DNA from: an uncultured Treponema sp.
GTDB taxonomy: Bacteria > Spirochaetota > Spirochaetia > Treponematales > Treponemataceae
NCBI GenBank assembly: GCA_937885175.1
Contig: CAKZZO010000063.1
Span: 3,700 to 67,699, forward strand
DNA length: 64,000 bases
Direction of reading: 5' to 3'
Notes under the pieces: model-generated
Databases searched by the model: none
Told to the model about the DNA's origin: nothing
What the model saw: only the letters and a program-made list of their open reading frames with translations
Program-made: the position numbers and the translations under genes
In this document: piece after piece, positions 1 through 39,748 of the stretch
How the letters are laid out: every line of letters starts with the position of its first letter
Numbering within the stretch: the first letter of the stretch is position 1

Positions 1-31
1 AAATTACACGCACTATTCGGAGGTGAGCAGA

Positions 32-1351
32 ATGAGTAACGCCGTTCAATACACCGACATGAAGGACAGTGGGATCAAGTGGATCGGCTCTGTTCCGGCA
101 TCGTGGAATGTGCGGACGCTCTATCAGCTTGCCACAAGAGTGAATAACAAAAACTCCGATCTCACCGAGCAGAATCTGCTTTCCTTAAGCTACGGAAAAA
201 TCAAGCGCAAGGACATCAATACCAATGACGGCCTGCTGCCTGCTTCTTTCGATGGATATAACGTCATCGAAGCCGGGGACATCGTTCTGCGCCTGACAGA
301 TTTGCAGAACGATCATACAAGTCTGCGTGTCGGTCAAGCTACGGAGCGCGGCATTATCACCTCGGCATACACCACTCTGCGACCGATCAATCCTGCGCAT
401 TCCAGATACCTCTACTATCTGATCCATGCCTTTGATCTTAAGAAAGGCTTTTATGGCATGGGTTCAGGCGTTCGTCAGGGACTGAATTATGATGAAGTAA
501 AGGAACTGCGAGTGGTTCTTCCTTCGCAAAAGGAACAAGACGCAATTGTAGCGTATTTGGATGATGTTTGCGTACAGATAGACACGCTGATTCAGGAAGC
601 GAAAGGCACTATTTCTGAATATAAGCAATGGAAGGAATCCTTGATTTTTTACACACTTACTCATGGTTTAGATTCTACCGTTTCCTTGAAAGATAGCGGA
701 ATAAACTGGATTGGCCGTATACCAGAAAGTAGTTCTATTGTAAGAATGCGTTACCTTGTGGACGGTTATAAAGCAGGTCCATTTGGTAGTTCTCTCATTA
801 CTGATAAACTTGATTCTTCCGGCACAATTTTAGTCTATACACCAGAACATATAGCGAAACAGAGTGTTGAAAACGAAAAAAATTTATATTTGCCGGAAGA
901 ACGACGGGAACAGATGTCTCAATTCTTTGTGCAGAAGGGAGATATCATCTTTCCTATCGTTGGTTCTCTCGGAAGAGCCATGCTGATTACTGAGGATATG
1001 CCAGAGGGAATTATTAATCAGCGATTGGCTAAGTTTAGAATTAAAGAGGATGTCATTGATATGGATTTCTTCCTCTGGTTCTTCGCAAAAAGCTCTTTCT
1101 ATAATCAGTTTATAGAAGTAAACTGCAGGGGATCGTTCATTTTAAATTTAACAAAAACGATAATCTATGATATGCCAGTAGTGCTTCCTGGAAGTATTGA
1201 GACGCAACGTGAGATTGCCGAATATCTGAACAGAAGATGTTCGACAATAGATTCGCTGATAAAAGAAAAGGAAACCTTGCTGGACGATTTGGAATTGTAC
1301 AAACGCTCATTGATATATGAAACAGTAACAGGAAAGCGAAAGGTGGTGTGA
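32..1351 (+). CDS. hsdS: Type I restriction-modification specificity subunit HsdS
   Basis: ATG at 32 sits 8 nt after GGAGG (19-23). Two variable target-recognition halves are separated by conserved helices (central LPSQKEQDAIVAYLDD..., C-terminal LPGSIETQREIAEYLNRRC...), the classic HsdS layout. There is a 3-nt gap to hsdR. Confidence 0.9.
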   Translation: MSNAVQYTDMKDSGIKWIGSVPASWNVRTLYQLATRVNNKNSDLTEQNLLSLSYGKIKRKDINTNDGLLPASFDGYNVIEAGDIVLRLTDLQNDHTSLRVGQATERGIITSAYTTLRPINPAHSRYLYYLIHAFDLKKGFYGMGSGVRQGLNYDEVKELRVVLPSQKEQDAIVAYLDDVCVQIDTLIQEAKGTISEYKQWKESLIFYTLTHGLDSTVSLKDSGINWIGRIPESSSIVRMRYLVDGYKAGPFGSSLITDKLDSSGTILVYTPEHIAKQSVENEKNLYLPEERREQMSQFFVQKGDIIFPIVGSLGRAMLITEDMPEGIINQRLAKFRIKEDVIDMDFFLWFFAKSSFYNQFIEVNCRGSFILNLTKTIIYDMPVVLPGSIETQREIAEYLNRRCSTIDSLIKEKETLLDDLELYKRSLIYETVTGKRKVV

Positions 1352-1354
1352 CCC

Positions 1355-4300
1355 ATGAATGAAGATAAGGGATTTCAAGACCGTGTCACGGTATACTACG
1401 AGGGCATCCAGGGCATGGACGAATCGGAGAAGACATTCGAGGCATTCATCGAGTCCTACCTCATCTCCGAAGAAGGCGGCTGGACGAAAGCCACGGATGC
1501 GGGACTCCGCAGCGAGGAAAGCCGCGGAATGAATCTGGACATCGTGACGCTGACGGATTTTGTAAAGGCTACCCAGCCGATGGCATGGAAGCGTTTCGAA
1601 CGGATGTGTACCATTAACCCGGTACGCCAGTTCTACAAGTCCTTCGAGAACGCCGTGACACAGGATGGCCTGATTTCCGTTCTCCGCTACGGCTTCAAGC
1701 ATCGCGGCGTTTCCTTCCGCGTGTGCTATTTCAAGCCGGAATCCGAACTGAATGATCTGGCCGTGGCAAACTATCAGAAGAATGTTTGTCAGTGCATCCG
1801 GCAGTGGCATTACTCGGAGCAGAACAAGAACAGCATTGATATGCTGCTTGCTGTCAACGGCATCCCGATTATCGCTATTGAACTGAAGAACCAGCTGACG
1901 GGACAGTCCGTGGATGACGCAAAAAAACAGTGGGCATATAACCGCAATCCCAAGGAGCCGGTATTCGGCTTTAACAAGCGCATTCTGGCATACTTTGCCT
2001 GCGACCTTTACGATGTTTATATGACCACAAGGCTGGAAGGACCCATGACAAACTTCCTGCCCTTTAACCAGGGCAGCAACGGCGCGGGCAGAGACGGTGG
2101 AGCGGGCAACCCTCCGAATCCTACAGGCGGCTATGTGACATCCTACTTCTGGGAAAATATGCTGCAGAAGGATAAGCTGATGGATATCCTCCAGAAATTC
2201 ATCAGCTATGAGAAGACCGAGAAAAAAGAAATCATGCCGGACGGCTCTGCCAATATCAAGAAGACCGAGAAGATCATCTTCCCGCGTTATCATCAGCTGG
2301 ATGTCGTGCGGGAGCTGGTGCGCCATGTGCGTGAGAACGGTCCCGGACACAATTACCTCATTCAGCACAGCGCAGGTTCCGGCAAGTCCAACTCCATCGC
2401 CTGGACTGCCTATCGGATGGCGAGTCTGCATGACAGCAATAACGAGGCTGTGTACGACAGCGTGATTGTGGTCACCGACCGCCGCGTTTTGGATCAGCAG
2501 CTCCAAGCCACTATCTCCAGCTTTGACCATACCCTCGGCAGCGTGGAGACCATTGACGATAAGAAAAGTTCAAAAGACCTGCTGAACGCCATCAACAAGG
2601 GCAAGCGTGTTATTGTCACCACCCTGCAGAAGTTTCCTGTCATTTACGAGCAGGTTCAGTCTGCCGTAGGCAAACACTATGCCATCATCGTGGATGAGGC
2701 GCACAGCAGTCAGACCGGGCAGTCCGCTATGAAGCTGAAAGCCGCTCTTGCGGATGTTTCCGATGCCCTTGAGGAATATGCCGAACTGGAACAGAAAGCG
2801 GTCGATGATATAGAATCCAAGGATATTCTCGTCCAGGATATGCTCAGTCAGGGCAAGCACAAGAATCTGAGCTTCTTCGCTTTCACCGCTACGCCGAAGG
2901 GCAAGACGCTCGAAATCTTCGGCGAACCGCAGCCGGACGGCTCTTTCCATCCCTTCCACATCTATTCGATGAGACAGGCTATCGAGGAAGGTTTCATCCT
3001 GGATGTGCTGGCAAACTATACCACCTATAAAATGTGTTATCAGATCGCCAAAAATGTGCCGGATAACCCGGATGTCCCGACTTCCAAAGCCGTTCGTACC
3101 ATCCGCCGATATGAGGAACTGCATCCGCATAACCTTGCGCAGAAAGCAGCTATCATCGTAGAGACCTTCCGGGATGTTACCAAACACAAGATCGGCGGTC
3201 TCGGAAAGATGATGGTCGTTACCGCATCCCGACTTGCGGCTGTCCGCTACTACCACGAGATCAAGCGGTATCTGGAGCAGAACGATTATGACGATATCGA
3301 GATTATGATCGCGTTCAGCGGCAGCCTGAAAGACCCGGATGATCCCAACAGCCCTGAATATACAGAAAGTTCCATGAACGTGGACAGCAACGGCAATCGC
3401 GTCAAGGAGAGCCAGACAAAAAGCGTATTCCATGATGAAGGCGATATCCTTATTGTCGCGGAGAAATACCAGACAGGCTTTGATGAGCCGCTGCTTCATA
3501 CCATGATCGTGGACAAGGAACTTCGGGATGTTAAGGCCGTACAGACTCTTAGCCGTCTGAACAGAACTTATCCGCGCAAGGTCGATACCTATGTACTTGA
3601 CTTCGTGAACGATGTTGACCGCATCCGCGAGGCGTTCCAACAGTTCTATCAGGAAACAAGTCTGGATGAGGAGATCAACTTCGACCTCATTTACACCACA
3701 CAGAAAATCCTGCGTGACTTCAAAGTCTACACCGATGAGGATATCGAAGCGGTATCACAGATTTATTTCGATCCAGATGTCCGCAAGGCGAACGCGACAC
3801 AAGGCAAAATTTCCAATATACTCAAGCCGGTCGCTGACAAGTACAATCTGCTGAACCAGGAACAGCGGTATCAGTTCCGCAGAGAGGTTCGCGCTTTCGT
3901 AAAGTGGTATAACTACATTTCGCAGATTACCAGGATGTTTGACAAGGATTTGCATAAGGAATATATCCTCTGCTCTTACCTTGCCAAGCTGCTCCCATCG
4001 GATAAGACGCAGCCGTTTGACCTCGACAATCGCGTGAAACTGGAATACTATCGTTTGGAAAAGACCTATGAAGGCGCAATCGAACTGGAAGCGACTCCCG
4101 GCTCATGGAAGCCGACCCAGCCGAAACGCGCCGGCGGCCAGAAGGATAGGCTCAGTCCGTTGGATGAGATTATTGCGAGGATCAACGAGGAATTTTTCGG
4201 AGATTTCACGGATGCCGACCGCGTCATGGTAGATACCCTCTACACGAAGATGCGCAAGGATGCCAAGGTCAAGAAGGCGGCCAAGAGCAATGACCGCCAG

Positions 4301-4471
4301 GTCTATGAACGGAGTATCTTCCCCGGTATATTCGATACGACCGCACAAGAGGCTTATATGGAAAACACGGAGGCTTACGAGCAGCTGTTCCTCGATGCCG
4401 AGAAATACCGCATCATCCAGCAGGCACTTGCGGAGAGGCTCTATCGGGAGCTTCATGGCGATCCTAAATAA
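1355..4471 (+). CDS. hsdR: Type I restriction enzyme R subunit HsdR (nuclease + SF2 translocase)
   Basis: 1038 aa. N-terminal PD-(D/E)xK motif [19 protein letters not shown]; helicase motif [12 protein letters not shown]; motif [10 protein letters not shown]; later QTGFDEP. Length and domain order are typical of HsdR. Confidence 0.93.
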
Positions 4472-4534
4472 GGCACAGGACAATCAAGACGCTGAAGGGC
4501 AGCGAAACATTTGGCAAATTAACGGAGGTGCAGC

Positions 4535-6631
4535 ATGGCTATACCAAAAATCAAAAAACAGGACATCATCGACGCCTTAAAGTACATCGATGAGAACGGT
4601 GTGCCTTTCCATAACCAGAGTACGAAGTATGAACTCGTGACGGAGGATGGAAAGCGATATCCGCCGAAGTATGTGGTAGCCGTGGCTGACCATATGGCAA
4701 ACGGTACGGATATTTCAACAGAAGGCTTTAACGCTGTGGAGGCAAAGAGCTACCTGGAAGGTCAGGACTTTACGATTGAGACAAAGCAGCAGGAAAAGTT
4801 TGAATTGTCTGTCTCCGCTGAGAATGTAGAGTCCACAGATGAACGGTTCACGATGGAAAATCTGAGTCTCGGCGACAATTATAAGCCTCTCGATGTGTAT
4901 TTCAAAAAGGCAAACGGAGACGTGATAAAACGCTCCTACAGTAAAGGTGAAAGAAGGAATTCCAATCAGACGATGCCACGTATCGCTTTCCAGATTTTTG
5001 AAAAGCAGATATCAAATATGTCCGTTGAGGATAAGGAGGCCTTTCCTATCTGCAAATACAATCCTGACAGCGATATGATTTGCGGAATTTTCTCCAGCGT
5101 GGATGAGTTTAAGAAACATCGCAACACCATAGAGTACCTGACATATGGCTACGATAATGGCAGGCAGTTCGTTATCTATTGCTGGAATATCTTCTCCACG
5201 ATTATTTTCGTCCAGGAATGCTTGAAGCGTTTCGGAGAGCCTGGGGATCAATTCATCCTTACCTACCGTGAGAAGGATGAGAAGGAAACAGAGGCTGCAG
5301 AGACAGAGGCAGCCGCACAGGAGGAACTTGTCCAGCAGTTTAAGGGATACAGAAATCCCTTCTCCTCTATGCTGATTGCTTCGAAGAATCTGATTTTCAG
5401 AGGTGCGCCGGGTACCGGCAAGTCTTACCTCGCAAAGGAAATCGCTACGGATATTATCAGCAACGGGTACTTTGATGACTATACGCTACTCACCGATGAG
5501 CAGAAGAAACAGGTGGAGTTTGTCCAGTTCCATCCAAGCTATGACTACTCTGATTTTGTTGAGGGCTTGAGACCGAAAGTAAATGATGACGGTACTATGG
5601 GCTTTGAATTGCAGGACGGCATTTTCAAGAAGTTCGTTGCCCGCGCAAGAAAGAACTACGAGGATTCCCAAAAGTCAAAGGAAACGATAGAGAAGGAAAT
5701 CTCTGTGCAGGAATCAATGACGGAGTTCTTTTCCAACATTGAACTTGGCGTTGATACCTTTAAGACAATCAATGGCAATGAGTTCACCATTACCAGCGTG
5801 GATGACAAACACATTACTATCTCCATACCCGGAAACGCCACCGTCAATAAGCTCACCCTGAATCTGGACGAGGTCAGGAAGATGCTGGAGTCCGGGCAGA
5901 AGTTCGACAAGATCAAGGATATCACGACCTTCTTTGGAAAGTCGTTTGCAACACAGGCGTATTCCTATGACTTCGCAATCTACAAGGCTATCAGGGCAAA
6001 GAAAAGCGCAGCTTCTAAGGCGAAGGCAAAGCAGGAAGAATTGAAGAAGTACATCTTCATTATCGATGAAATTAACCGTGGTGAAATTTCAAAGATATTC
6101 GGCGAACTGTTCTTTGCAATAGACCCTGGATATCGCGGCAGAGCCGGAGAAATATCTACGCAATATTCCAATCTGCACTCCGATCCGGATGAGAAGTTTT
6201 ATATCCCGGAGAATGTTTATATCATTGGCACCATGAACGACATCGACCGTTCTGTGGACAGCTTTGATTTTGCTATGCGTAGACGTTTCCGTTTCGTGGA
6301 ACTCCGAGCAGATGAGCGTCTTGAAATGCTGGCTTCTTTGGAGAATGAAGAGCTGGAGGCCGAGGCTATCAAGAGAATGGCTGCGCTTAATAAGGAAATT
6401 GCAAGTGTTGAGGACTTGAACGAGAATTACCAAATCGGCGCATCATACTTCCTAAAGCTGAAGACTCTCGATTTTGACCAGCTTTGGACGGATTACCTGC
6501 AGCCGCTTCTGCAGGAATACATCCAGGGGATGTACGATGAGGAAGGGCTTATGAATCGTTTTGCGAAAGCATACGGTTATAAAAAGCCGGTTGAAGGTGA
6601 TGTGAATGAAACTGCTCAAGATCAAGGATAA
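4535..6631 (+). CDS. mcrB: McrB-family AAA+ GTPase restriction subunit with atypical N-terminal region
   Basis: 698 aa with GGAGGT upstream. McrB signature blocks are present: GAPGTGKS, FHPSYDYSDFVEG, IIDEINRGEISKIFGEL, IIGTMNDIDRS, AMRRRFRF. The first ~285 aa do not resemble the E. coli McrB reader domain. Confidence 0.88.
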   Translation: MAIPKIKKQDIIDALKYIDENGVPFHNQSTKYELVTEDGKRYPPKYVVAVADHMANGTDISTEGFNAVEAKSYLEGQDFTIETKQQEKFELSVSAENVESTDERFTMENLSLGDNYKPLDVYFKKANGDVIKRSYSKGERRNSNQTMPRIAFQIFEKQISNMSVEDKEAFPICKYNPDSDMICGIFSSVDEFKKHRNTIEYLTYGYDNGRQFVIYCWNIFSTIIFVQECLKRFGEPGDQFILTYREKDEKETEAAETEAAAQEELVQQFKGYRNPFSSMLIASKNLIFRGAPGTGKSYLAKEIATDIISNGYFDDYTLLTDEQKKQVEFVQFHPSYDYSDFVEGLRPKVNDDGTMGFELQDGIFKKFVARARKNYEDSQKSKETIEKEISVQESMTEFFSNIELGVDTFKTINGNEFTITSVDDKHITISIPGNATVNKLTLNLDEVRKMLESGQKFDKIKDITTFFGKSFATQAYSYDFAIYKAIRAKKSAASKAKAKQEELKKYIFIIDEINRGEISKIFGELFFAIDPGYRGRAGEISTQYSNLHSDPDEKFYIPENVYIIGTMNDIDRSVDSFDFAMRRRFRFVELRADERLEMLASLENEELEAEAIKRMAALNKEIASVEDLNENYQIGASYFLKLKTLDFDQLWTDYLQPLLQEYIQGMYDEEGLMNRFAKAYGYKKPVEGDVNETAQDQG

Positions 6632-7925
6632 TTCACAACATAAAAAAGATGCCTTTTCTGATATAGGAATCCTTGCGGGCAAGATTGCTGATAAGACATT
6701 GGAGCAGCTTGAACGGGAAGGTGTATTTGTGTTCCCTGAAATCGTGAAAGACGCAGAGGATATAACGCGGGATCAGATGATAATCCAGAGCGTAAACGAT
6801 ACTTATCGGTCGGGCAATGTGATGGGATTCCTTGGTTGCGGAGATGAACGGCTTATTATTGAATCACGCTTTGGCGGCGAGGAGGATGATTTCTTTTTTC
6901 AATATCTCCTTGATAAAGTGATGGACTTTCCAAACATCGTAGATTTGGATTCCGATGCGAATCAGGATAATCGGCTGTTTAACTTCCTGCTGTTCCTGTT
7001 TCCGTATTATCTGAAAACAGCAATGAGGAAAGGCCTGTTTAAGAAGTACATCCGCCACAGGTATAATGACGGAAATGTGAAAGGTGCTATCGATATCGCA
7101 AGACATATAGAGAAGAACACACCGTTCACCGGGAGCGTTGCGTATTCGCAGAGGGAGTTTTCTTATGATAACAGCCTCATGGAACTGGTGCGACACACCA
7201 TCGAATTTATCAAAAGGAAACCATACGGGAATAATCTCCTTGTCAAAGTAAAGGATGAGGTGAAACTCGTTATTGATGCCACACCTGGATATGAGCCTTA
7301 TGATAGGCAAAGAATCATTGAGCAGAACAAGAAGAACACAGTGCGCCACGCATACTTCCGAGAATATCTCGCTTTGCAGAGATTGTGTCTCTTGATTCTT
7401 CGCCATCAGAAACATCAAATCGGCTCTGGCTCAAGGCAGATATACGGCATTTTATTTGATGGTGCCTGGCTGTGGGAGGAGTATATCAATTCCCTCATCG
7501 AGGATGTGTTTTATCATCCGATGAATAAAGGTGGTAAAGGCGCCCAGAGGCTATTTGCCGGCAACATCGGGTTAATCTATCCTGATTTCATCAGCCGTAA
7601 TAATGAAACAAGAATCATAGCAGATGCCAAGTACAAGCCTCTTGATAATATTGGCAATAAGGACTATCTGCAGGTGTTGGCGTATATGTTCCGCTTTGAT
7701 GCAAAGGCGGGCTACTACCTTTATCCAGAAGCGGAAGAATCGGATGATCTGAAACTGTGGATGAATCGCGGCTCGACCTACGAATCAAATGTCATGCCGC
7801 GTGATGACATCAGCATTACAAAACACGGTTTGAAAATTCCTGTAAAAGCTACTGACTACGCAGGCTTTGTGGAAAAAATGAAAACTCATGAGCAGGAGTT
7901 CATTCAAGCATTTTCAATGATGTAA
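6606..7925 (+). CDS. mcrC: McrC-like endonuclease subunit
   Basis: 439 aa, overlaps mcrB by 26 nt. C-terminal PD-(D/E)xK-type motif IYPDF...RIIADAKYK. Its position directly after mcrB is typical of McrC. Confidence 0.8.
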   Translation: MKLLKIKDNSQHKKDAFSDIGILAGKIADKTLEQLEREGVFVFPEIVKDAEDITRDQMIIQSVNDTYRSGNVMGFLGCGDERLIIESRFGGEEDDFFFQYLLDKVMDFPNIVDLDSDANQDNRLFNFLLFLFPYYLKTAMRKGLFKKYIRHRYNDGNVKGAIDIARHIEKNTPFTGSVAYSQREFSYDNSLMELVRHTIEFIKRKPYGNNLLVKVKDEVKLVIDATPGYEPYDRQRIIEQNKKNTVRHAYFREYLALQRLCLLILRHQKHQIGSGSRQIYGILFDGAWLWEEYINSLIEDVFYHPMNKGGKGAQRLFAGNIGLIYPDFISRNNETRIIADAKYKPLDNIGNKDYLQVLAYMFRFDAKAGYYLYPEAEESDDLKLWMNRGSTYESNVMPRDDISITKHGLKIPVKATDYAGFVEKMKTHEQEFIQAFSMM

Positions 7926-7943
7926 TATGTTTTGAGGCAGAAT

Positions 7944-8207
7944 ATGGGGAGTTATGATTTAACCGCCGCGCATGAAGCGGCAAGATTCAATAAGGATATA
8001 CTCAGGAAAAACAGTAAATGCGGCTGCTTCTATTGCCTCAAGGTGTTTTCGCCATCTGAGATTGAGGAATGGTGCCCCGAACTGGATGAAGGCGAAGAAG
8101 TGACAGCTATATGTCCATACTGTGGTATAGATGCAATTCTGCCTGAAAGTGCTGGGTATCCGCTTACTGATGAATTTCTGGGAACAATGCGAGAAAGGTG
8201 GTTTTGA
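7944..8207 (+). CDS. Small cysteine-rich (Zn-ribbon-like) protein of unknown function
   Basis: 87 aa from ATG 7944; the ORF track starts at TTG 7932. Six Cys are arranged CGCFYC ... WC ... CPYC. The gene lies 18 nt after mcrC and 3 nt before the ARH gene. No family can be named from memory. Confidence 0.6.
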   Translation: MGSYDLTAAHEAARFNKDILRKNSKCGCFYCLKVFSPSEIEEWCPELDEGEEVTAICPYCGIDAILPESAGYPLTDEFLGTMRERWF

Positions 8208-8210
8208 TAT

Positions 8211-9068
8211 ATGCTTGGAGCAATAGTCGGTGACATCGTAGGTTCGGTCTACGAATGGCACAATATAAAAACGAAGGAGTTTCCCTTGTTCCGGGATGAC
8301 TGCTTTTTCACGGATGATACCGTCATGACCTGCGCCGTTGCGGAGGCGGTTATGAATGGCGGAGAAAGAGATGACTTCATTGACGCGATGAAGAAGTACG
8401 GTCGGATGTACCCAGATGCAGGCTACGGCGGCAGATTCGGTACGTGGGTATTCTCCGATGATCGTGAGCCGTACAACAGCTACGGTAATGGTTCAGCTAT
8501 GCGCGTTTCGCCTTGCGCCTGGGTGATGGATTGCGGCTTCTGCGCTCGGACGGGAATGTGGCCATCCAACGGAAGAGCCGGTGCCCAGCTGTCCGCAGAG
8601 GTAACACATAACCACCCGGAGGGAATCAAAGGCGCAATGGCAACAGCAGATGCAATCTTCATGTGCCGTTATTACTTCGGTGGCTATTACGGCGACTACG
8701 AGCAGCCTATCAATGATGACCCGGCAGAGTGCAAACGGCGTATAAAGGAACACATCGAGAATGAGTATGGCTACGATCTTTCCAAGACGCTGGATGAAAT
8801 CCGTCCTACATACCGCTTTAACGAGACCTGCCAGGACACCGTACCGCAAGCCATTATCGCATTTCTGGAAAGCACGGACTTTGAGGACGCTATCCGAAAC
8901 GCCATCTCACTTGGCGGCGACAGCGATACCCTTGCGGCAATCACGGGAAGCATCGCAGAGGCAGCATATGGCATCCCCGACTGGATTAAGGACAAGGCGT
9001 ATTCCTATCTCGATGAGCCGTTGAAGGATGTGCTCAGACGGTGGAAGAAATACATTTCAAGAGACTGA
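8211..9068 (+). CDS. ADP-ribosylglycohydrolase family protein (DraG/ARH/Tri1 fold)
   Basis: 285 aa. N-terminal GAIVGDIVGSVYEW and FTDDTVMT blocks and C-terminal GGDSDTLAAITGSIAEAAYG block match the metal-binding motifs of the ADP-ribosylglycohydrolase family. Confidence 0.88.
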   Translation: MLGAIVGDIVGSVYEWHNIKTKEFPLFRDDCFFTDDTVMTCAVAEAVMNGGERDDFIDAMKKYGRMYPDAGYGGRFGTWVFSDDREPYNSYGNGSAMRVSPCAWVMDCGFCARTGMWPSNGRAGAQLSAEVTHNHPEGIKGAMATADAIFMCRYYFGGYYGDYEQPINDDPAECKRRIKEHIENEYGYDLSKTLDEIRPTYRFNETCQDTVPQAIIAFLESTDFEDAIRNAISLGGDSDTLAAITGSIAEAAYGIPDWIKDKAYSYLDEPLKDVLRRWKKYISRD

Positions 9069-9097
9069 TAAATCGAGGGTTTGTAGGAGGTATAGTG

Positions 9098-9511
9098 ATG
9101 TGGTTTTGGTTAGCACTCGGTTCAGCGGTCTTTGCCGCGCTGACAACAATACTGGCAAAGATAGGGATTGAAGGTGTAGGCTCTAACCTTGCCACTGCGA
9201 TCCGCACAATGGTCGTTGTTGTAATGGCTTGGGGAATGGTGTTTATCACTCATCAGCAGACCGGAATCAGGTCAATCAGTCAGAAGAGTTGGATTTTCCT
9301 AATCTTGTCCGGCCTTGCAACGGGAGCCTCATGGCTATGTTATTACAAGGCTTTGCAGATGGGAGATGCCTCCAAAGTCGTCCCGATTGATAAGCTCTCC
9401 GTAGTCATCACACTGGTGTTAGCTTTTATTTTCCTGCACGAAGAATTTACTACAAAGTCGGTGATTGGCTGCATCCTGATCGGAGCCGGAACATTATTGA
9501 TGGTTCTGTAA
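9098..9511 (+). CDS. Half-size EamA/DMT-family membrane transporter
   Basis: 137 aa from ATG 9098, with GTAGGAGG just upstream. About 4-5 hydrophobic helices with single-EamA-domain character (MWFWLALGSAVFAALTTILAK...). The track start at 9041 adds an unlikely hydrophilic extension. Confidence 0.75.
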   Translation: MWFWLALGSAVFAALTTILAKIGIEGVGSNLATAIRTMVVVVMAWGMVFITHQQTGIRSISQKSWIFLILSGLATGASWLCYYKALQMGDASKVVPIDKLSVVITLVLAFIFLHEEFTTKSVIGCILIGAGTLLMVL

Positions 9512-9528
9512 CACAACTTCCAGTTTGT

Positions 9529-9578
9529 ACCTTTTGATTATTCCTCACACCTTTTGATTTTGCCTATACCTTTCGATT
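9529..9578. repeat. Three direct copies of ACCTTT(T/C)GATT
   Basis: Copies at 9529-9539, 9549-9559 and 9568-9578, with ~20-nt periodicity, in the non-coding stretch after the EamA gene. Confidence 0.6.
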
Positions 9579-9586
9579 TTTCATCG

Positions 9587-9624
9587 GACTGGTTCAAATC
9601 GAGGGGTTCAGACTGGTTCAAATC
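9587..9624. repeat. Two direct copies of GACTGGTTCAAATC
   Basis: Exact 14-mers at 9587-9600 and 9611-9624, separated by 10 nt that contain a partial third copy (GGGGTTCA). Confidence 0.7.
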
Positions 9625-9670
9625 CTTAAGGGCAAGGTCACTGAAAAACTGAAAACGGGCATAAAAAAAG

Positions 9671-9705
9671 AGGGCTTCCGGCGGAGCAAAACCGCTGAAA
9701 GCCCT
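9671..9705. terminator. Hairpin flanked by A-run/T-rich tract (possible bidirectional terminator)
   Basis: AGGGCTTCCGGCGG / CCGCTGAAAGCCCT arms (12 of 14 positions pair) with loop AGCAAAA. Preceded by A7 (a T7 on the minus strand) and followed by TGTTTATT. Confidence 0.45.
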
Positions 9706-9750
9706 TGTTTATTGGGGATTTCCCTTGTATCAAAGACAGCGTTTACATAG

Positions 9751-11709
9751 ACGACGGATACAGTGGTACTCCGCTTTTACAATCTAAATCCATACATCGC
9801 CTATATCGGCATGCATGAGGCACTTGTCACAATGGTAAAACTGAATGTAGTGGCAACTTCTTATGCTGACGGCGTGTGGTCTTATACGGTGAAAAACAGT
9901 AATAACGAGCGTTTTGTTATGAACGTCAATACGCGGAACAGCACGGTGTATTGCGCAAATCTTGCTGACTTCATTTCTTCAGAAATATCATCTTCGTCTT
10001 CAGCTGCCCTTGTCTCAAGGCGAACTTCTTTTGCAGCAGATGATTACGAAACTGCAGAGTACGGTGATCTTGACGACGGTGATGACTATGTAAAGCCCGC
10101 AGAGACTGACGATTACACTGACTTTGTAAACCTCTTTGGCGCAGGTGACCAAAAGATGCCGGTGACCATGGTTGGTGCAAATACATGGTGCACGCCTACC
10201 ACCTTTGAGCTTGCAAAATACGGCATGAAGATATATGCAGGCAGCGATGATGCCTATATCCCCCTGGCGGCACTTACTGCAATCTTAACACCGTCGGCGG
10301 ATGCTTTTGTATGGAATGGCGATCGGATTATCAGACGCAATTTTGATACTAATGACATGAAGGATGACTTTGCTGAATGGCGCAAAACTGATACGCGTCC
10401 AGAAGAATTTATCGATTTTACCTACAATATTCTCTGTTTTAACCATGACTACTGCTACGGTCAGCCGGGCTATTACGGTATCTTTGATATCGATGGGGAT
10501 GGCTACAATCTTGGCGATGAGGCAACAGGAACCAAAGCGGCTGACAAACTTGACCTTGACAGCCTTCTTAAAAAGTATGCGCCAAGTGTATACACTAATT
10601 TGCATTCATCATCTTACAACACCTATGTTACGGCCTTGGCAACGCTGATGAACTACATCCTTGGCGATGGCCACACAGGTATGTTTGTTCCAAAGAAGCC
10701 CGAAGGAACTACAATCAACCTTCCTAATGAGGATAAACTTCCTTCTTCTGGAAAAAGAAAGCTCTTGAATAAGGCTTCGGATGGACTGGAAACAAAAACT
10801 AATGATACATATATTCCTAAACGCGATGCAATCATAGAGAACTTGCCTGAGAATCGTCGCTTTGTGCTTGATGGCTGCAACTATAAGAAAGATGCAAATA
10901 AAACCCCGGTTCGTTTTGTATCATTCTCAGAAGACTATACAACGGCAGTCATTCATTTTAACTCGTTTGCTATACCTAATATACAGGCTTGGAACGTTGA
11001 ATATCCAAAATGGACTGCCTATAATAGTGCGGATGATGCTGGAAAGGCGGCTATCGATGCTGATGAGGCTAAGAAACCATCCTATCCCAATGATGATCTG
11101 GGGCTTTTCTACTATGCCTTTAACCTTATCGAAACAAATACTCTCGTAAAAGACAAGGTTCAGAACATCGTCATAGACCTTTCCGTAAATGGCGGCGGCT
11201 CAGTGGCGGATGTAGGCTATTTGCTTTCATTCCTTTACGGCGACATCATGCTCATCGATCAGGATGCCCACACGGGAGCAAACGTTCTGACATCTTATTC
11301 TACAGACTTGAACCTTGACGGTACTGTTGATGAAAAAGATGATACGCTTCGCAAAAACCGCAATACGAAATACAAAATGGCGATTCTGACTTCTGAATCC
11401 TCATTCTCCAGCGCAAACCTCTTCCCCGTCATGGCAAAGGAAGTGTGCGGCGCAAAAATTATCGGACGGCGTTCTTCTGGCGGCTCTTGCAGCATCAACA
11501 CTTTCTGCACGCCAGACGGCTTTACCTATTACTATTCCATCGCCCTGCGCGGTACTCCCGACATGTTAACGGAAGACCGCTACATGGCAATGGAAAACGG
11601 TGCGGCAGTGGATGCTACGCTTGACTATACTACCAGTGGTGTCAATGACTTCTACAGTTATGCAAAACTCAAAGAGGCTGTTGAAGCGGTATACAAGACC
11701 ACAAACTAA
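9751..11709 (+). pseudogene. 5'-truncated paralogue of the S41-peptidase-like lipoprotein gene
   Basis: The frame opens only after TAG 9748-9750, and the first start is GTG 9763. From its first residues (TTDTVVLRFYNLNPYIAYIGMHEAL) it aligns with residues 61-85 of the downstream paralogue (TEDTARIRLYKGNKYVAYMGMNTAL). The signal peptide and lipobox are therefore missing. It may still be translated from GTG. Confidence 0.55.
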
Positions 11710-11718
11710 GAGAGAACT

Positions 11719-13776
11719 ATGAAAATGACACTTAGGAAATTGAATCCAAAAATCTGGAATCTCTGTGCGGGTCTGTTACTGGCTTTTTCCTTTGCGGCCT
11801 GTACCTACGAGGAGTACACCCTTACCATAAAGGATGCGGAAGAGGAGACCGAGGAATTTACGGAAAACAAAGTCTTCATTCGTAGCAGTGGAGACTTGAC
11901 AGAAGATACAGCGAGAATCCGCCTCTACAAGGGGAACAAGTATGTCGCTTACATGGGCATGAATACCGCTCTTGCAACGCTTGCAAAACTGAATGTGGTA
12001 TCGACTTCCTACGCTGACGGCATCTATTCATACAAACTGAAAAACAGCGATGGAATACAGTTTGTCATAAACGTAAACCCGGGGAAGGGTACGGTCTATT
12101 GCGCAGGTTTTTATGAAATCTTCTCTACAAGCAAGAGTGATATAGCCCAAGCGGCTTCATCAACTGATACAAGTAGGAACTATCCCTTTGTCGCAATTTC
12201 TTCCACTACGAATGTCACTCCCTATACCTTTGACCTTGCAAAGTATGGCATGAAGATGTATGCAGGCTCGGACGATGCCTATCTCCCGCTTGCGGCTTTG
12301 TGTGCCATTTTCTATCCGGCAGGAAATTATCTGACATGGAACGGAGTTGACCTTATCAAGGGTACAGAGAGTTCGATAAGTGATTTCAAAGACTGGCGAA
12401 TGAAGGATGAACGCCAGAGCGAGCTGATTGACTACAACTACAACATGCTCTGCTTTATCCATGACTACTGCTATGGCCATCCGGGCTACTATGGGCTCTT
12501 TGATGAAGACAATGACGGCTTTAATCTGAAAGATGAAGAGACCAGAACTGCCGAGGCAGACAAGCTGGATTTTGACACGCTCCTTAAAAACCATGCAAAA
12601 GATGTGTATGAGGGCTTGCACTCCGCTTCCTATAGCACCTATATTGCTTCGCTCTATAAGTTAACCAAATATGTCTACGGTGATGTTCACACAGGCATGA
12701 AGATTCCTTCAATGCCTGTAGGAAGCGAAATTGATACGACAGCCGCAAGAAAAGTGACGGTTTCCGGAAAATACAAAGTGTCGGATAAATGTGACGAGAC
12801 TCTGAATGATATTATTGATGCACCAAAGCGAGATGTATTGGCAAAGAAAGCCTATGAGGAAGGCAGGCTGATTCTAAACCCCGGTGATGCGTATGTGACG
12901 AATTTTTCTGGGCTGCCAATTCGCTATGTATCCTTTGATACGGCAACGAACCCTACGACAGCAGTCCTCCACTTTGACAGCTTTGAGGCAATAAATGATG
13001 CCGCCTGGAAAAAGGAATATCCGAAATGGATTTACTATAATGAGCAGACTGATGCAGAAAAAGCATTGATAGATGCTGCTACAGCAGACTCTGATTCCAC
13101 ACGCTATGCCCAAAAGCCCTCTTACCCCAATGACGACCTGGGATTCTTTTATTATGCCTTTAATCAAATCGAAAACAAATACCCAACGGTAAAAAATGTG
13201 GTCATAGACATTTCCGTAAATGGTGGCGGTGCTGTGGCTGATGTGGGATTCTTGCTTAACTTCATTTGTTCTGGCTATTATGAGGGTAGCGGTGAAGATG
13301 AGGATTCTGTTTCTCAGGATGTCTGGCTGACAGATCAGGATGTTCATGCCGGTTCTAGCATAAAGACGATGTATTTTCTTGACCTGAATCTTGATGGGAA
13401 AATTAATGCCCTTGATACCGAGGTGTGTGCTGCTCGTCGGAAAAAGTACAGCATAGCCATTCTGACTACAGGCTGCTCATTCTCTTGCGCAAATCTCTTC
13501 CCGGTTATGGCAAAGGACTTCGGCATAAAGATAATCGGTCAACGGTCACTGGGTGGCAGCTGTGATGTCGTTCCCTTCGTTACGGTAGACGGCTTTATTT
13601 ACCGATACTCTGTTGCTCGGCGTGGCGTTCCCGCAGACGGTAAGTATACCACCATGGAAAATGGTGCAGCCGTGGACAAAGAAATTAACTACGGCACGGG
13701 TACTGATGCAGAAATTGCCGCTTTCTACAAGGAGGCCAGCCTTGGTGCGGCCGCAGCAGAAGTAGACAAGAAGTAA
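11719..13776 (+). CDS. S41 (C-terminal processing) peptidase-like lipoprotein
   Basis: 685 aa. Signal peptide with lipobox LLLAFSFAAC; S41-type block VVIDISVNGGGAVADVGFLL and ILTTGCSFSCANLFPVMAK. Clear paralogue of 9751-11709. Confidence 0.75.
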   Translation: MKMTLRKLNPKIWNLCAGLLLAFSFAACTYEEYTLTIKDAEEETEEFTENKVFIRSSGDLTEDTARIRLYKGNKYVAYMGMNTALATLAKLNVVSTSYADGIYSYKLKNSDGIQFVINVNPGKGTVYCAGFYEIFSTSKSDIAQAASSTDTSRNYPFVAISSTTNVTPYTFDLAKYGMKMYAGSDDAYLPLAALCAIFYPAGNYLTWNGVDLIKGTESSISDFKDWRMKDERQSELIDYNYNMLCFIHDYCYGHPGYYGLFDEDNDGFNLKDEETRTAEADKLDFDTLLKNHAKDVYEGLHSASYSTYIASLYKLTKYVYGDVHTGMKIPSMPVGSEIDTTAARKVTVSGKYKVSDKCDETLNDIIDAPKRDVLAKKAYEEGRLILNPGDAYVTNFSGLPIRYVSFDTATNPTTAVLHFDSFEAINDAAWKKEYPKWIYYNEQTDAEKALIDAATADSDSTRYAQKPSYPNDDLGFFYYAFNQIENKYPTVKNVVIDISVNGGGAVADVGFLLNFICSGYYEGSGEDEDSVSQDVWLTDQDVHAGSSIKTMYFLDLNLDGKINALDTEVCAARRKKYSIAILTTGCSFSCANLFPVMAKDFGIKIIGQRSLGGSCDVVPFVTVDGFIYRYSVARRGVPADGKYTTMENGAAVDKEINYGTGTDAEIAAFYKEASLGAAAAEVDKK

Positions 13777-13835
13777 AAACAGCAAATGGTATTTTTTACT
13801 TGCCGTTAGATGTGATTTTGTTGTATCTTTAAGGT

Positions 13836-14372
13836 ATGGAAGAAAAGATTAGGAGTACAACAGTCATTGCCGTCAAGCGCAATGGAAAGGTTGCCATGGC
13901 GGGTGACGGTCAGGTTACGGCGGGAAATACTGTCGTAAAGGGTAATGCCCACAAAGTCCGCAAGATTTACAATGGCAAGGTGCTTACGGGCTTTGCCGGT
14001 TCTGTGGCAGATGCCTTTACCCTCTTTGACAAATTTGAAGAAAAACTAAAGGAATACAACGGCGACATCATGCGCTCTGCGGTGGAGCTGGCAAAACTCT
14101 GGCGTACAGAACGTGCCTATCAGAAACTTGAAGCCATGCTCCTTGTGGCAAACAGCGAGCGCATCCTTTTGATTAGCGGCGACGGCAACGTAATTGAGCC
14201 GGAAAATGATGTGTGTGCCATCGGTTCTGGCGGAAACTATGCCTATGCGGCAGCCTTGGCCTATCTGGAAGCAAGTGATTTAAGCGCAAGGGAAATTGCA
14301 GAAAAAAGCCTGAAAATCGCAGGCGACATCTGTATCTATACCAACCATACACTCACAATCGAGGAAATTTAA
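13836..14372 (+). CDS. hslV: ATP-dependent protease subunit HslV
   Basis: 178 aa. N-terminal [21 protein letters not shown] with the catalytic Thr context. Overlaps hslU by 1 nt (TAATG). Confidence 0.93.
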
Positions 14373-15781
14373 TGGCACTTTCTGGACTTACCCCAAAACA
14401 AATTGTAGAAAAACTGGACGCATATATCATCGGGCAAAAAGAGGCAAAGAAAGCCGTGGCGATTGCCTTGCGAAACCGTGAGCGGCGCATTCACTTGGAT
14501 GAAGATATTCGTGATGAAGTTGCACCAAAAAATATCCTGATGATAGGACCTACTGGCGTTGGAAAAACCGAGATTGCCCGCCGCCTTGCAAAACTGGTAA
14601 ACGCACCCTTTCTCAAAGTGGAGGCAACCAAATACACCGAGGTAGGCTATGTTGGTCGTGATGTGGAAAGCATGATTCGAGACCTGATGGCTGTGGGCTA
14701 CACCAATGTCAAGGCAGAGATGGAAGACAAACTGCGGGAGGCATGTAAGCCCAAGGTTGAAGAAAAACTCCTTGATTTGCTGCTTCCGGGCACGGGTGAA
14801 AAAGACAAGAAAAAGGATAAGTCGGCGGACACGCCCTTTGCCAATCCTGTTTCGCCCACGCTTCCTGAGCCTGCGGAAGGACAGAAGGAAGACCTGAATT
14901 CCACCCGTGAAAAATTCCGCCAGATGCTGCGGGAAGGCAAACTGGAAGACAGGGAAGTGGAAGTGACGGTAGAACGCACCACCCGTATGCCCAGCATGGG
15001 AATCATTGCCAGCGGAAATATGGAAGACTTGCAGAGCGGAGTGGAAGACCTGACCCAAATGCTTACAGGCGGTCGCTTTAAGAAAAAGCAGGTTTCAATC
15101 CGTGAGGCCCGCAAGATTATTACGGAAGAAACACTGGATTCCATGATTGATGTGGACAAGGTTTCTGAAGAAGCCAAAAAGCGGGTGGAGCAGAGCGGCA
15201 TTGTCTTTATTGATGAAATTGATAAGATTGCCACCAAAGGCGGACAGGCTAGCGGGCAGGACGTAAGCCGAGAAGGCGTACAGCGCGACATTCTTCCCAT
15301 TGTGGAAGGCTCCAAAGTCAATACTCGCTACGGTGTTGTAGATACTACCCACATTCTCTTTGTGGCTGCAGGAGCCTTTAGCGTGTCTGCTCCCAGCGAT
15401 TTGATTCCTGAACTGCAAGGACGCTTTCCCCTGCGGGTGGAACTGGAATCTTTGAGCAAGGATGACTTTAAGCGCATTCTGACTGAACCGAAAAACTCCC
15501 TTTCCAAGCAGTATACGGCACTTTTGGGAACTGAGGGCGTTACCCTGGACTTTACCGATGATGCCATTGACAAGATGGCGGCAATCGCGGAAGAAGTGAA
15601 CAGCCACAGCGAAAATATCGGAGCCCGCCGCCTGCACACGATTATGGAAAAAGTCACCGAGGAAATCAGTTTTGATGCTGACGAGCACTCTGGCGAAACC
15701 ATAAAAGTGGACAGTTCCTTTGTGGAAGAAAAACTAAAGGGCATCAGTACCGATCAGGATTTGAGCCGCTACATTCTCTAG
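14372..15781 (+). CDS. hslU: ATP-dependent protease ATPase subunit HslU
   Basis: 469 aa. LTPKQIVEKLDAYIIGQ, Walker A GPTGVGKTEIARRLA, Walker B GIVFIDEIDKI, and the HslU I-domain insertion. Confidence 0.95.
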   Translation: MALSGLTPKQIVEKLDAYIIGQKEAKKAVAIALRNRERRIHLDEDIRDEVAPKNILMIGPTGVGKTEIARRLAKLVNAPFLKVEATKYTEVGYVGRDVESMIRDLMAVGYTNVKAEMEDKLREACKPKVEEKLLDLLLPGTGEKDKKKDKSADTPFANPVSPTLPEPAEGQKEDLNSTREKFRQMLREGKLEDREVEVTVERTTRMPSMGIIASGNMEDLQSGVEDLTQMLTGGRFKKKQVSIREARKIITEETLDSMIDVDKVSEEAKKRVEQSGIVFIDEIDKIATKGGQASGQDVSREGVQRDILPIVEGSKVNTRYGVVDTTHILFVAAGAFSVSAPSDLIPELQGRFPLRVELESLSKDDFKRILTEPKNSLSKQYTALLGTEGVTLDFTDDAIDKMAAIAEEVNSHSENIGARRLHTIMEKVTEEISFDADEHSGETIKVDSSFVEEKLKGISTDQDLSRYIL

Positions 15782-15784
15782 CCC

Positions 15785-39540: not shown

Positions 39541-39610
39541 AAACTCTGGTACATACATCTTGATTTGTCGGATGGGGTTGTCAGCACTCCCGTGCGGGAG
39601 TGCGACGGAT

Positions 39611-39684
39611 TGACCCATGGGCGAGTCGAACGCCCGACAACATGCTTAGAAGGCATGTGCTCTATCCAGCTGAGCTAAAGGGCC
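39611..39684 (-). tRNA. tRNA-Arg (anticodon TCT)
   Basis: 74-nt cloverleaf on the minus strand: GGCCCTT-TA-GCTC-AGCTGGATA-GAGC-A-CATGC-CTTCTAA-GCATG-TTGTC-GGGCG-TTCGACT-CGCCC-ATGGGTC-A. The D, anticodon and T stems are perfect. The acceptor stem has one G-U and one U-U pair. CCA is not encoded. Confidence 0.85.
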
Positions 39685-39748
39685 AGAAGTACATATATCA
39701 TACCGATTTTTTGAATGTTTTGCAAGCACTTGGCTTTTTCGCCTGTCC

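Follow-up and report, generated by a model that had tools for sequence, protein, structure and literature searches.

What are two short genes, one for a zinc-ribbon protein and one for an ADP-ribosylglycohydrolase, doing directly behind a McrBC restriction operon, and do they belong to each other or to the operon? The genes lie in a stretch of 64,000 nucleotides (nt) from an uncultured Treponema sp. (contig CAKZZO010000063.1, positions 3,700 to 67,699), referred to here as the window. A sequence-only reading of the window had proposed that the 87-residue zinc-ribbon protein (ZN) and the 285-residue hydrolase (ARH) form a new defence or counter-defence module. Judged by genomic context, the association of ZN with McrBC is stronger than that of ZN with ARH, a relationship absent from the earlier proposals. 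Comparison of related islands showed, as far as gene order and divergence can tell, that this McrBC lineage has ZN as a conserved third gene; ZN is under purifying selection and, of the genes found in the slot behind mcrC, is the most persistent one. By the same comparison, ARH is a frequent but not constant cargo at the island end, apparently recruited from a Firmicute clade. The explanation we tentatively favour, with slightly less than even confidence, is that the locus is a type I restriction-modification (R-M) plus McrBC island with a modular 3′ accessory slot, in which ZN is a McrBC accessory and ARH an independent eraser. The features of the locus are as follows.

23 to 1351, plus strand: hsdS, specificity subunit of the type I R-M system, left part of the island (Pfam Methylase_S; PADLOC Specificity_I, E = 9e-83)
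1355 to 4471, plus strand: hsdR, type I restriction subunit (Pfam HSDR_N, ResIII, SWI2_SNF2 and T1R_D3-like; PADLOC REase_I)
4535 to 6631, plus strand: mcrB, AAA+ GTPase subunit of a type IV restriction enzyme (Pfam AAA_5; NCBIfam McrB, E = 4.5e-40, below the equivalog cut-off)
6606 to 7925, plus strand: mcrC, nuclease subunit (Pfam McrBC PF10117, E = 9e-51)
7944 to 8207, plus strand: ZN, 87-residue zinc-ribbon protein of an uncharacterised family, McrBC-satellite subclade
8211 to 9068, plus strand: ARH, 285-residue ADP-ribosylglycohydrolase-fold enzyme, ARH3-like, terminal island gene (PF03747, E = 3e-32)
9063 to 9073, no strand: right-hand limit of homology to sister islands, i.e. the island boundary (blastn)
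9100 to 9511, plus strand: half-size EamA/DMT transporter gene, chromosomal flank outside the module (Pfam EamA)

The pair does sit in a type I R-M/McrBC array, with hsdS, hsdR, mcrB and mcrC upstream in the same orientation; hsdM presumably lies upstream of the window. An McrB AAA+ GTPase paired with an McrC protein (DUF2357/PD-(D/E)xK) marks the operon as a McrBC type IV system. The mcrC reading frame overlaps the 3′ end of mcrB, the N-terminal ~270 residues of McrB form an uncharacterised domain, and McrB is 78–97% identical among sister islands. ZN had been placed from 7932 onwards, and an open reading frame (ORF) does span 7932–8207 if counted from a TTG; the true start codon is an ATG, at 7944, preceded by GAGG at a distance of 7 nt, and homologues begin at this same Met. 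From the mcrC stop (7923–7925), this leaves an 18-nt gap to ZN, and the ZN stop (8205–8207) is followed after 3 nt by the ARH ATG at 8211, with the ARH ribosome-binding site (AAGGTGG) inside the 3′ end of ZN. Hence the description of an ORF with six Cys, 18 nt after mcrC and 3 nt before a 285-residue ARH with intact ligands, was accurate. Between mcrB and the end of ARH, we found no plus-strand terminator and no convincing promoter. ZN and ARH are probably co-transcribed with mcrBC, and ZN appears to be translationally coupled to mcrC. By their substitution patterns both are real genes, because the ratios of nonsynonymous to synonymous substitution (dN/dS) against orthologues are low (ZN, 0.09–0.12; ARH, 0.01–0.03; McrC, 0.02–0.03) and because ZN has relatives in 4268 clusters at 50% identity (2758 below E = 1e-10) in an exhaustive profile search.

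The link between ZN and McrBC is clearest in the close ZN subclade, which we defined by at least 57% identity to the window ZN and by the insert EWCxE..GEEVTAICPYC (also GE.VTAICPYC), and of which twelve lineages were examined. In seven of the twelve, ZN lies directly 3′ of McrC with gaps of 1–18 nt (113 nt in L171). These are the window type (loci L002, L003, L099 and L102), P0018/L087, P0024/L006, P0016/L182, P0031/L185, P0019/L186 and P0033/L171, and their ZN proteins are 62–93% identical. Six of them carry the window's McrBC lineage (McrC 79–95% identical), and the McrBC of L171 is a distinct lineage (McrB 27% identical). Within lineage, ZN identity is 63–70% versus 79–89% for McrC; ZN diverges 2–3 times faster. 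What follows ZN varies: the 285-residue ARH; a second ARH type of 371–390 residues, which is only 29% identical and overlaps ZN by 8 nt in L087; a 139-residue protein without family; or a 62-residue ORF and then a Cys_rich_CPCC protein, the CPCC gene being the one downstream of ZN in L182. Four McrC–ZN lineages (L171, L182, L185 and L186) have no ARH at all. L103 and L104 precisely lack ZN: 46 nt separate McrC from ARH, which has a ribosome-binding site of its own. In L095 and L096 the slot between McrC and ARH is taken by Macro-vWA. No direct repeats or cassette signature are visible in the alignment at the ZN indel. The remaining five lineages of the subclade, those away from McrBC, lie in integrative or defence-like regions, among them the arrangements HIRAN–ARH remnant–ZN (L081–L086) and ARH–ZN (L004), and regions with serine recombinases, RhuM, or SLFN_AlbA_2/HATPase_c_4 regulators. 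The sister island L087 also has a 499-residue M78-peptidase-like gene between hsdR and mcrB (L087:3071–4570), and a gene for a 1543-residue methyltransferase/helicase (9636–14267) after its second-type ARH.

Is ARH part of the same island? The blastn homology of L002, L003, L099, L102, L103 and L104 to the window stops in every case at 9063–9073. Beyond ARH, different genes follow in the window, in L001, in L002, in L003, L099 and L102 as a group, and in L103 with L104. This makes at least four contexts, and the EamA gene that adjoins ARH in the window lies next to ARH in none of the related loci. With homology ending at the ARH stop and the genes beyond it differing, ARH is, on this comparison, the terminal cargo gene of an island block that occurs in different genomic contexts. 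The idea that ARH belongs to the chromosomal flank was rejected on the same grounds.

Whether ZN and ARH make a pair is a separate matter. They could be a functional two-protein unit in which ZN targets or gates the hydrolase, serving defence or counter-defence beside McrBC. The 3-nt spacing and the ribosome-binding site inside ZN suggest coupling, as does the 8-nt overlap in L087. Moreover, the close ZN subclade adjoins four types of ARH, in both gene orders: the 285-residue type, the 371–390-residue type, the ARH of L004 (52% identical, upstream of ZN) and the decayed remnant after HIRAN in L081–L086. In L022, a more distant ZN lies one gene away from an 88%-identical ARH. No ARH match in the ZN flanks, about 1 Mb in all, lies farther than two genes from ZN, and one protein (P0316) is a fusion of ZN to a macrodomain homologous to the macro found beside vWA-ARH (E = 2e-49). 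Counts over larger samples point the other way. We sampled 80 metagenomic loci with close ARH homologues, 75 of which were evaluable for an upstream ZN, and 80 genome loci with ZN, in which ARH was sought within 10 kb. ZN was upstream of ARH in only 2 of the 75 loci, both behind McrBC, and ARH was near ZN in only 6 of the 80, three of these being near-identical orthologues of the window. ZN shows a clean presence/absence polymorphism in homologous McrBC–ARH islands, and four lineages, as described above, keep it behind McrC without ARH. The two genes also differ sharply in divergence and in GC content at third codon positions (GC3; ARH 0.61, ZN 0.41); with McrC at 0.50, the GC3 of ARH is unlike that of ZN and McrC, which is consistent with a mosaic origin of the island. 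A two-protein unit is on balance unlikely. ZN and ARH appear to be co-transcribed and yet each occurs without the other. The proposed module is borne out in part: both genes are real and the block McrBC–ZN–ARH recurs with varied flanks; obligate pairing and co-conservation fail, given the counts above and the loci lacking ZN (L103/L104).

If ZN is an accessory of McrBC, its fold and its relatives should be considered first. Its six Cys are C26, C28, C31, C44, C57 and C60. All six were counted correctly before, and only five are conserved family-wide, Cys44 of the 'WC' motif being restricted to the ZN subclade. C28, C31, C57 and C60 are invariant across the family and form two CxxC knuckles; C26, H10, D63 and the C-terminal WF are each conserved in at least 90% of members. 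The AlphaFold2 model of ZN is confident (pLDDT 91.5), with strands at residues 26–28, 42–45, 53–56 and 65–67, and the two knuckles lie on β-hairpins, as in the zinc-ribbon class; metal binding is predicted. Searches of the PDB gave no significant match by fold (Foldseek, best E = 4) or by sequence profile (best E = 0.34). Pfam returned only sub-threshold zf-CHCC knuckle matches and no family, even when the limit was relaxed to E = 10 for 24 ZN members, and NCBIfam returned none either (YnfU at 16 bits, cut-off 36). In PADLOC-DB v2, neither ZN nor ARH matches any family at E up to 0.01. These results bear out two earlier statements, that the zinc-ribbon partner has no known family and that no named defence system has this composition. 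ZN does match PHROG 30788 (E = 1e-17), which has no assigned function, and some relatives are named 'cytoplasmic protein' in NCBI records, an uninformative name. ZN is accordingly a member of this PHROG 30788/'cytoplasmic protein' family, which comes without a function, a Pfam model or a solved structure.

Relatives of ZN are about 50% identical across phyla. In BFVD, ZN matches uncharacterised giant-virus proteins and a protein of an Achromobacter phage. The structural relatives there (A0A8F8KSI7, A0A3G4ZSM1, A0A7D3R345 and A0A514CSX9; TM up to 0.79) come from Clandestinovirus, Edafosvirus, Fadolivirus and Achromobacter phage Motura, and one of them is labelled 'RPC12/RpoP', probably from the zinc ribbon alone. 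Many members of the family have tandem copies or additional domains. Tandem ZN–ZN proteins include P0241–P0244. Among 55 longer members searched against Pfam, Cys_rich_CPCC was found in two; Macro, AAA-ATPase_like with PDDEXK_4, HNH, HD, GNAT, LRR, SseB and UPF0158 were found once each; and HTH families were also represented. The fusion of ZN to PDDEXK_4 in P0329 is confirmed by Pfam. P0330 is likely the AAA-ATPase_like/PDDEXK_4 member of the family, and P0280 joins ZN to a PD-(D/E)xK nuclease as judged by motif only.

Within the favoured explanation, the small zinc ribbon of ZN may bind nucleic acid or protein and serve the McrC-type PD-(D/E)xK nuclease, either as an adaptor or as a regulator. 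We suggest this role by analogy, because ZN relatives are fused to PD-(D/E)xK, HNH and HD nucleases and because McrC homologues of CoCoNuT systems have a fused zinc ribbon. In those homologues the ribbon occurs as a fused internal domain only (PMC11090510), and it is likened to ZN here by description only.

Stand-alone genes of the ZN family were found on 34 plasmid records, 3 phage records and 26 IMG/VR contigs; the plasmid hosts include Bacillus, Priestia, Mycobacterium, Mycolicibacterium, Sinorhizobium and Enterococcus. The direct neighbours of ZN in the sampled genome loci are very diverse, with genes for RecR, HAD, HsdM, MukF, SecA, SmpB, HTH, NUDIX, TIR and SLOG proteins. Those that match PADLOC include MADS components, type I methyltransferases and RmrA. 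In L067, L070 and L076, which are Ruminococcaceae metagenome-assembled genomes, a distant ZN homologue (around 10001) lies 12 nt behind a MADS-type operon with matches to PADLOC mad2, mad3 and mad8; here ZN stands as the last gene, at the 3′ end of a second kind of restriction-type operon.

The second half of the favoured explanation concerns the hydrolase. ARH matches PF03747 with E = 3.3e-32 and 112.7 bits (cut-off 26.2), residues 1–255 aligning with profile positions 3–281 of 287. Its AlphaFold2 model is confident (pLDDT 89.1, pTM 0.91) and shows the all-helical ARH fold. The top 41 Foldseek matches are all ARH3 (E about 1e-8, TM 0.63–0.70), and these are followed by MJ1187, Tre1–Tri1 (6dre/6drh) and the Listeria ART–ARH effector-immunity pair 8za7, where ART denotes an ADP-ribosyltransferase. 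The ligands E15, T34-D35-D36-T37 and D237/D239/T240 align with E41, T76-D77-D78 and D314/D316/T317 of ARH3. D35, D36, T37, D237, D239 and T240 are invariant in 20 ARH homologues, and T34 is conserved in at least 90%. Because the metal and catalytic residues of ARH3 are aligned and conserved, ARH is predicted to be an active Mg-dependent ADP-ribosyl hydrolase of ARH3/Tri1 type. It does not qualify as DraG (TIGR02662, 45 bits versus a cut-off of 337), and no DraT or nif genes are nearby.

ARH belongs, by its homologue counts and substitution patterns, to a very abundant and strongly constrained Firmicute clade, with more than 8000 clusters at 90% identity at E < 1e-10, the best 120 of which are all 83–95% identical. 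We considered recent horizontal transfer as the source of the 85–95% identity across taxa and rejected it, since synonymous divergence (dS) between close ARH copies is saturated (1–2). As synonymous sites are saturated, the high identity reflects very strong constraint. For the same genome pairs (window 7944–9068 versus L001–L003, L099 and L102), dS was 0.38–0.68 for ZN, 0.73–1.5 for McrC and 1.1–2.2 for ARH; small gene size, RNA-level constraint and recombination are possible causes of the low ZN values. As for its role at this locus, ARH would act alone, erasing ADP-ribose that the ADP-ribosyltransferases of invaders set on host proteins or DNA. The host proteins so cleared might be the restriction enzymes themselves. 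ARH would then be a damage-reversal or 'anti-anti-restriction' add-on, as has been predicted for host systems centred on an ADP-ribosylglycohydrolase (ARG).

An ARH-fold enzyme behind a variable operon may also be read as immunity against neighbours rather than phages. On that account, ARH and ZN would be orphan immunity genes on the island, ARH being an Imm-ARG/Tri1-like protein against bacterially delivered ADP-ribosylating toxins, and the genes behind McrC would form a poly-immunity array. Imm-ARG is recognised as a class of enzymatic immunity proteins (PMC3482391), and the fold matches of ARH to Tre1–Tri1 and 8za7 fit this account. So do the orphan occurrences of ZN on plasmids and phages, in varied contexts and in tandem copies, its fusions to Cys_rich_CPCC, LRR, SseB, UPF0158 and a SUKH-like region (the last recognised by eye only), and the CPCC gene downstream in L182. 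However, the pair has no gene for a polymorphic toxin, LXG/WXG or Rhs protein beside it, and no toxin gene is among the 25 most frequent of 78 Pfam families of upstream ZN neighbours, the rarer families being unlisted. ARH scores 34 bits against the NCBIfam Tri1 model (NF041672), far below the cut-off of 490, and is flanked by McrC, ZN and EamA. In addition, the ~50% identity of ZN across phyla is unusually high for an immunity protein, and the tight coupling of ZN to mcrC would go unexplained. We judge this account improbable, to about the same degree as the two-protein unit.

The neighbourhoods of ARH bear on whether there is any link to defence. Enrichment of ARH in defence contexts, which the sequence-only reading implied, did not materialise: most homologues lie among α/β-hydrolase, SAP-domain, DAG-kinase and MerR genes. 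The recurrent neighbours in the sampled loci are α/β-hydrolases (35 loci) and a 205-residue SAP-domain protein directly upstream (16 loci), along with DAG-kinase-like genes, MerR regulators and DUF7668. Minor ones are vWA (7), a 334-residue macrodomain protein (5) and McrBC (7 plus one weak match). The 205-residue protein (L116:7343–7960 and 15 other loci, 16 of 80 in all), ~40 nt upstream of ARH, has an N-terminal SAP_new25 domain and a C-terminal 140 residues without family. As a hidden ART toxin it found no support in Pfam or PDB searches. Fusions of ARH are rare, comprising vWA+ARH (P0122) and ARH+SRA (P0211). In P0211 (L214:2602–3939) an ARH 87% identical to that of the window has a C-terminal SRA domain, which binds 5-methylcytosine, and the gene is adjoined by a gene for a 513-residue NYN-like protein. 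Given this fusion, modified DNA may be where some enzymes of the clade act. On the Selenomonas ruminantium plasmid pSRC2 (L215, NC_017076.1 34730–47569), ARH lies in a multi-gene cluster with an EEP nuclease/phosphatase, Macro, vWA, AAA, a NUDIX-like pyrophosphohydrolase and a nucleoside 2-deoxyribosyltransferase, adjoined by a DUF262 gene; the whole has the look of accessory genes centred on ADP-ribose or NAD. The pSRC2 ARH has 79.5% nt identity and is missing from the PLSDB gene table.

Such contexts could mean that neither gene has anything to do with defence, ARH being a housekeeping hydrolase of ADP-ribose or O-acetyl-ADP-ribose and ZN an unrelated small mobile gene, both hitch-hiking by island insertion. 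The abundance of ARH, its strong purifying selection and saturated dS, and its mostly non-defence flanks agree with this, as do RecR, SecA, SmpB, MukF and HAD genes among the neighbours of ZN. It is nevertheless very unlikely: homology ends exactly at the ARH stop, McrBC–(ZN)–ARH recurs with varied flanks, ZN is found behind two McrBC lineages and behind the MADS operon of L067/L070/L076, and the spacing is operon-like with no terminator. Least credible of all, and extremely unlikely, is the toxin–antidote module also raised earlier, with ZN as small toxin or inhibitor and ARH as antidote or the reverse, since for all the tightly spaced two-gene layout and the existence of ARH-fold antitoxins (DraG; DarG3 in DarHTG, PMC13069673), ZN is an 87-residue zinc ribbon without an ART, DarT or other toxin fold, no ADP-ribosyltransferase gene is nearby, no DarT or helicase gene is found in 1–16000 (Pfam and PADLOC on the flanking ORFs), and ZN and ARH each usually occur without the other.

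Several observations also weigh against the explanation that we favour, a McrBC accessory followed by an independent eraser. As six of the seven McrC–ZN lineages share one McrBC lineage, a single origin with later retention could account for them. Besides the three near-orthologues of the window, just one of the 77 other sampled ZN loci (L006) has ZN behind McrC, and the ZN of L006 is itself in the close subclade. PADLOC matches were obtained for only ~10% of 120 direct ZN neighbours. ARH evolves extremely slowly and lies mostly in non-defence contexts, unlike typical immune genes. Finally, some link between ZN and ADP-ribose, secondary in the favoured explanation, is suggested by the Macro+ZN fusion and by the various ARHs that the ZN subclade repeatedly adjoins.

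How does the locus compare with described systems? The canonical (E. coli-type) branch of McrBC is often linked to type I R-M in the CoCoNuT census (PMC11090510). The window shares with canonical McrBC the McrB AAA+ GTPase, the PF10117 McrC, their overlapping frames, and the position downstream of hsdS–hsdR in one orientation. It differs in its last two genes, a separate third gene for a zinc ribbon and the terminal ARH, neither of which the census (PMC11090510) describes; nor did the papers searched describe either of them for canonical McrBC.

Closest in concept to the ARH part are ART-less systems that Iyer, Burroughs, Anantharaman and Aravind predicted in 2022 as a response to viral ADP-ribosylation, in which an ARG is accompanied by vWA, Macro, HIRAN and restriction nucleases (PMC9503650, section 3.8). 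These are computational predictions, described from actinobacteria, planctomycetes and proteobacteria (PMC9503650). In common with them, the window has an ARG without a coupled ART or sirtuin (none among the window neighbours) together with restriction nucleases. Of their accessory modules, the window has McrBC only; vWA and Macro occur in the sister loci L092, L095 and L096, and HIRAN in L081. The Nudix or WYL-HTH regulator (42% of such systems) and the phosphatase (55%) are not in the island, and a NUDIX-like pyrophosphohydrolase and an EEP-family gene were seen near ARH only on plasmid pSRC2. Their cores include rhodanese or other phosphatases, absent here, and ZN is not a listed component. 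Because the Nudix/WYL regulators and phosphatases are absent, we did not class the island as an ARG-centred system.

With ARH3, DraG, Tri1 and Listeria Lmo0067, ARH shares the fold (TM 0.65–0.70 to ARH3) and the binuclear-metal ligand motifs. Its identity to them is only 20–23%, it is shorter than ARH3 or Tri1, and it has no DraT or Tre1-type ART partner gene. DarG3 is the ARH-fold antitoxin of DarHTG (PMC13069673), and AdfN is a phage orphan ADP-ribose-erasing, antitoxin-like enzyme with the NADAR fold (PMC11825919). The likeness to these two is by concept only: an ARH-fold or orphan eraser in phage–host conflict, possibly acting on DNA.

A wider reading would take the ZN family as a new domain that is widespread in the conflict systems of prokaryotes and viruses and works there as sensor or adaptor: it would read ADP-ribose, or another sugar modification, on protein or nucleic acid and couple the signal to nucleases (McrC, PD-(D/E)xK, HNH) and erasers (ARH, Macro). 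We regard this as quite unlikely. If true, McrBC–ZN–ARH would combine restriction with the detection and reversal of ADP-ribosylation by invaders, a logic without experimental precedent.

McrBC is among the commonest restriction systems. The retention of ZN behind McrC over deep divergence would give a new handle on the regulation or targeting of McrBC, or on its protection from phage counter-measures, and the ZN domain is met again in fusions, with other nucleases and with a macrodomain. Clustered at 50% identity, the family comprises about 4000 groups, a sizeable unannotated protein space whose members are encoded by bacteria, plasmids, phages and giant viruses. Host ARG systems directed against viral ADP-ribosylation have been proposed before, as have ARH-fold antitoxins; what the ARH cargo adds is a concrete Firmicute test case for the computational idea that host ADP-ribose erasers act against phage or plasmid enzymes. 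We see McrBC–ZN–ARH as a good lead from genomic context, not a discovered system.

The DNA to the right of the island looks like an ordinary housekeeping flank over 9763–15781. It contains tandem S41-peptidase paralogues (9763–11709 and 11719–13776) and an HslV-like proteasome-family gene (13836–14372), which is abutted by a 469-residue ORF (14372–15781). In an Rfam scan of the window, no family other than tRNA-Arg(TCT) attained its gathering score; this gene, at 39610–39685 on the minus strand, is the sole tRNA gene of the window.

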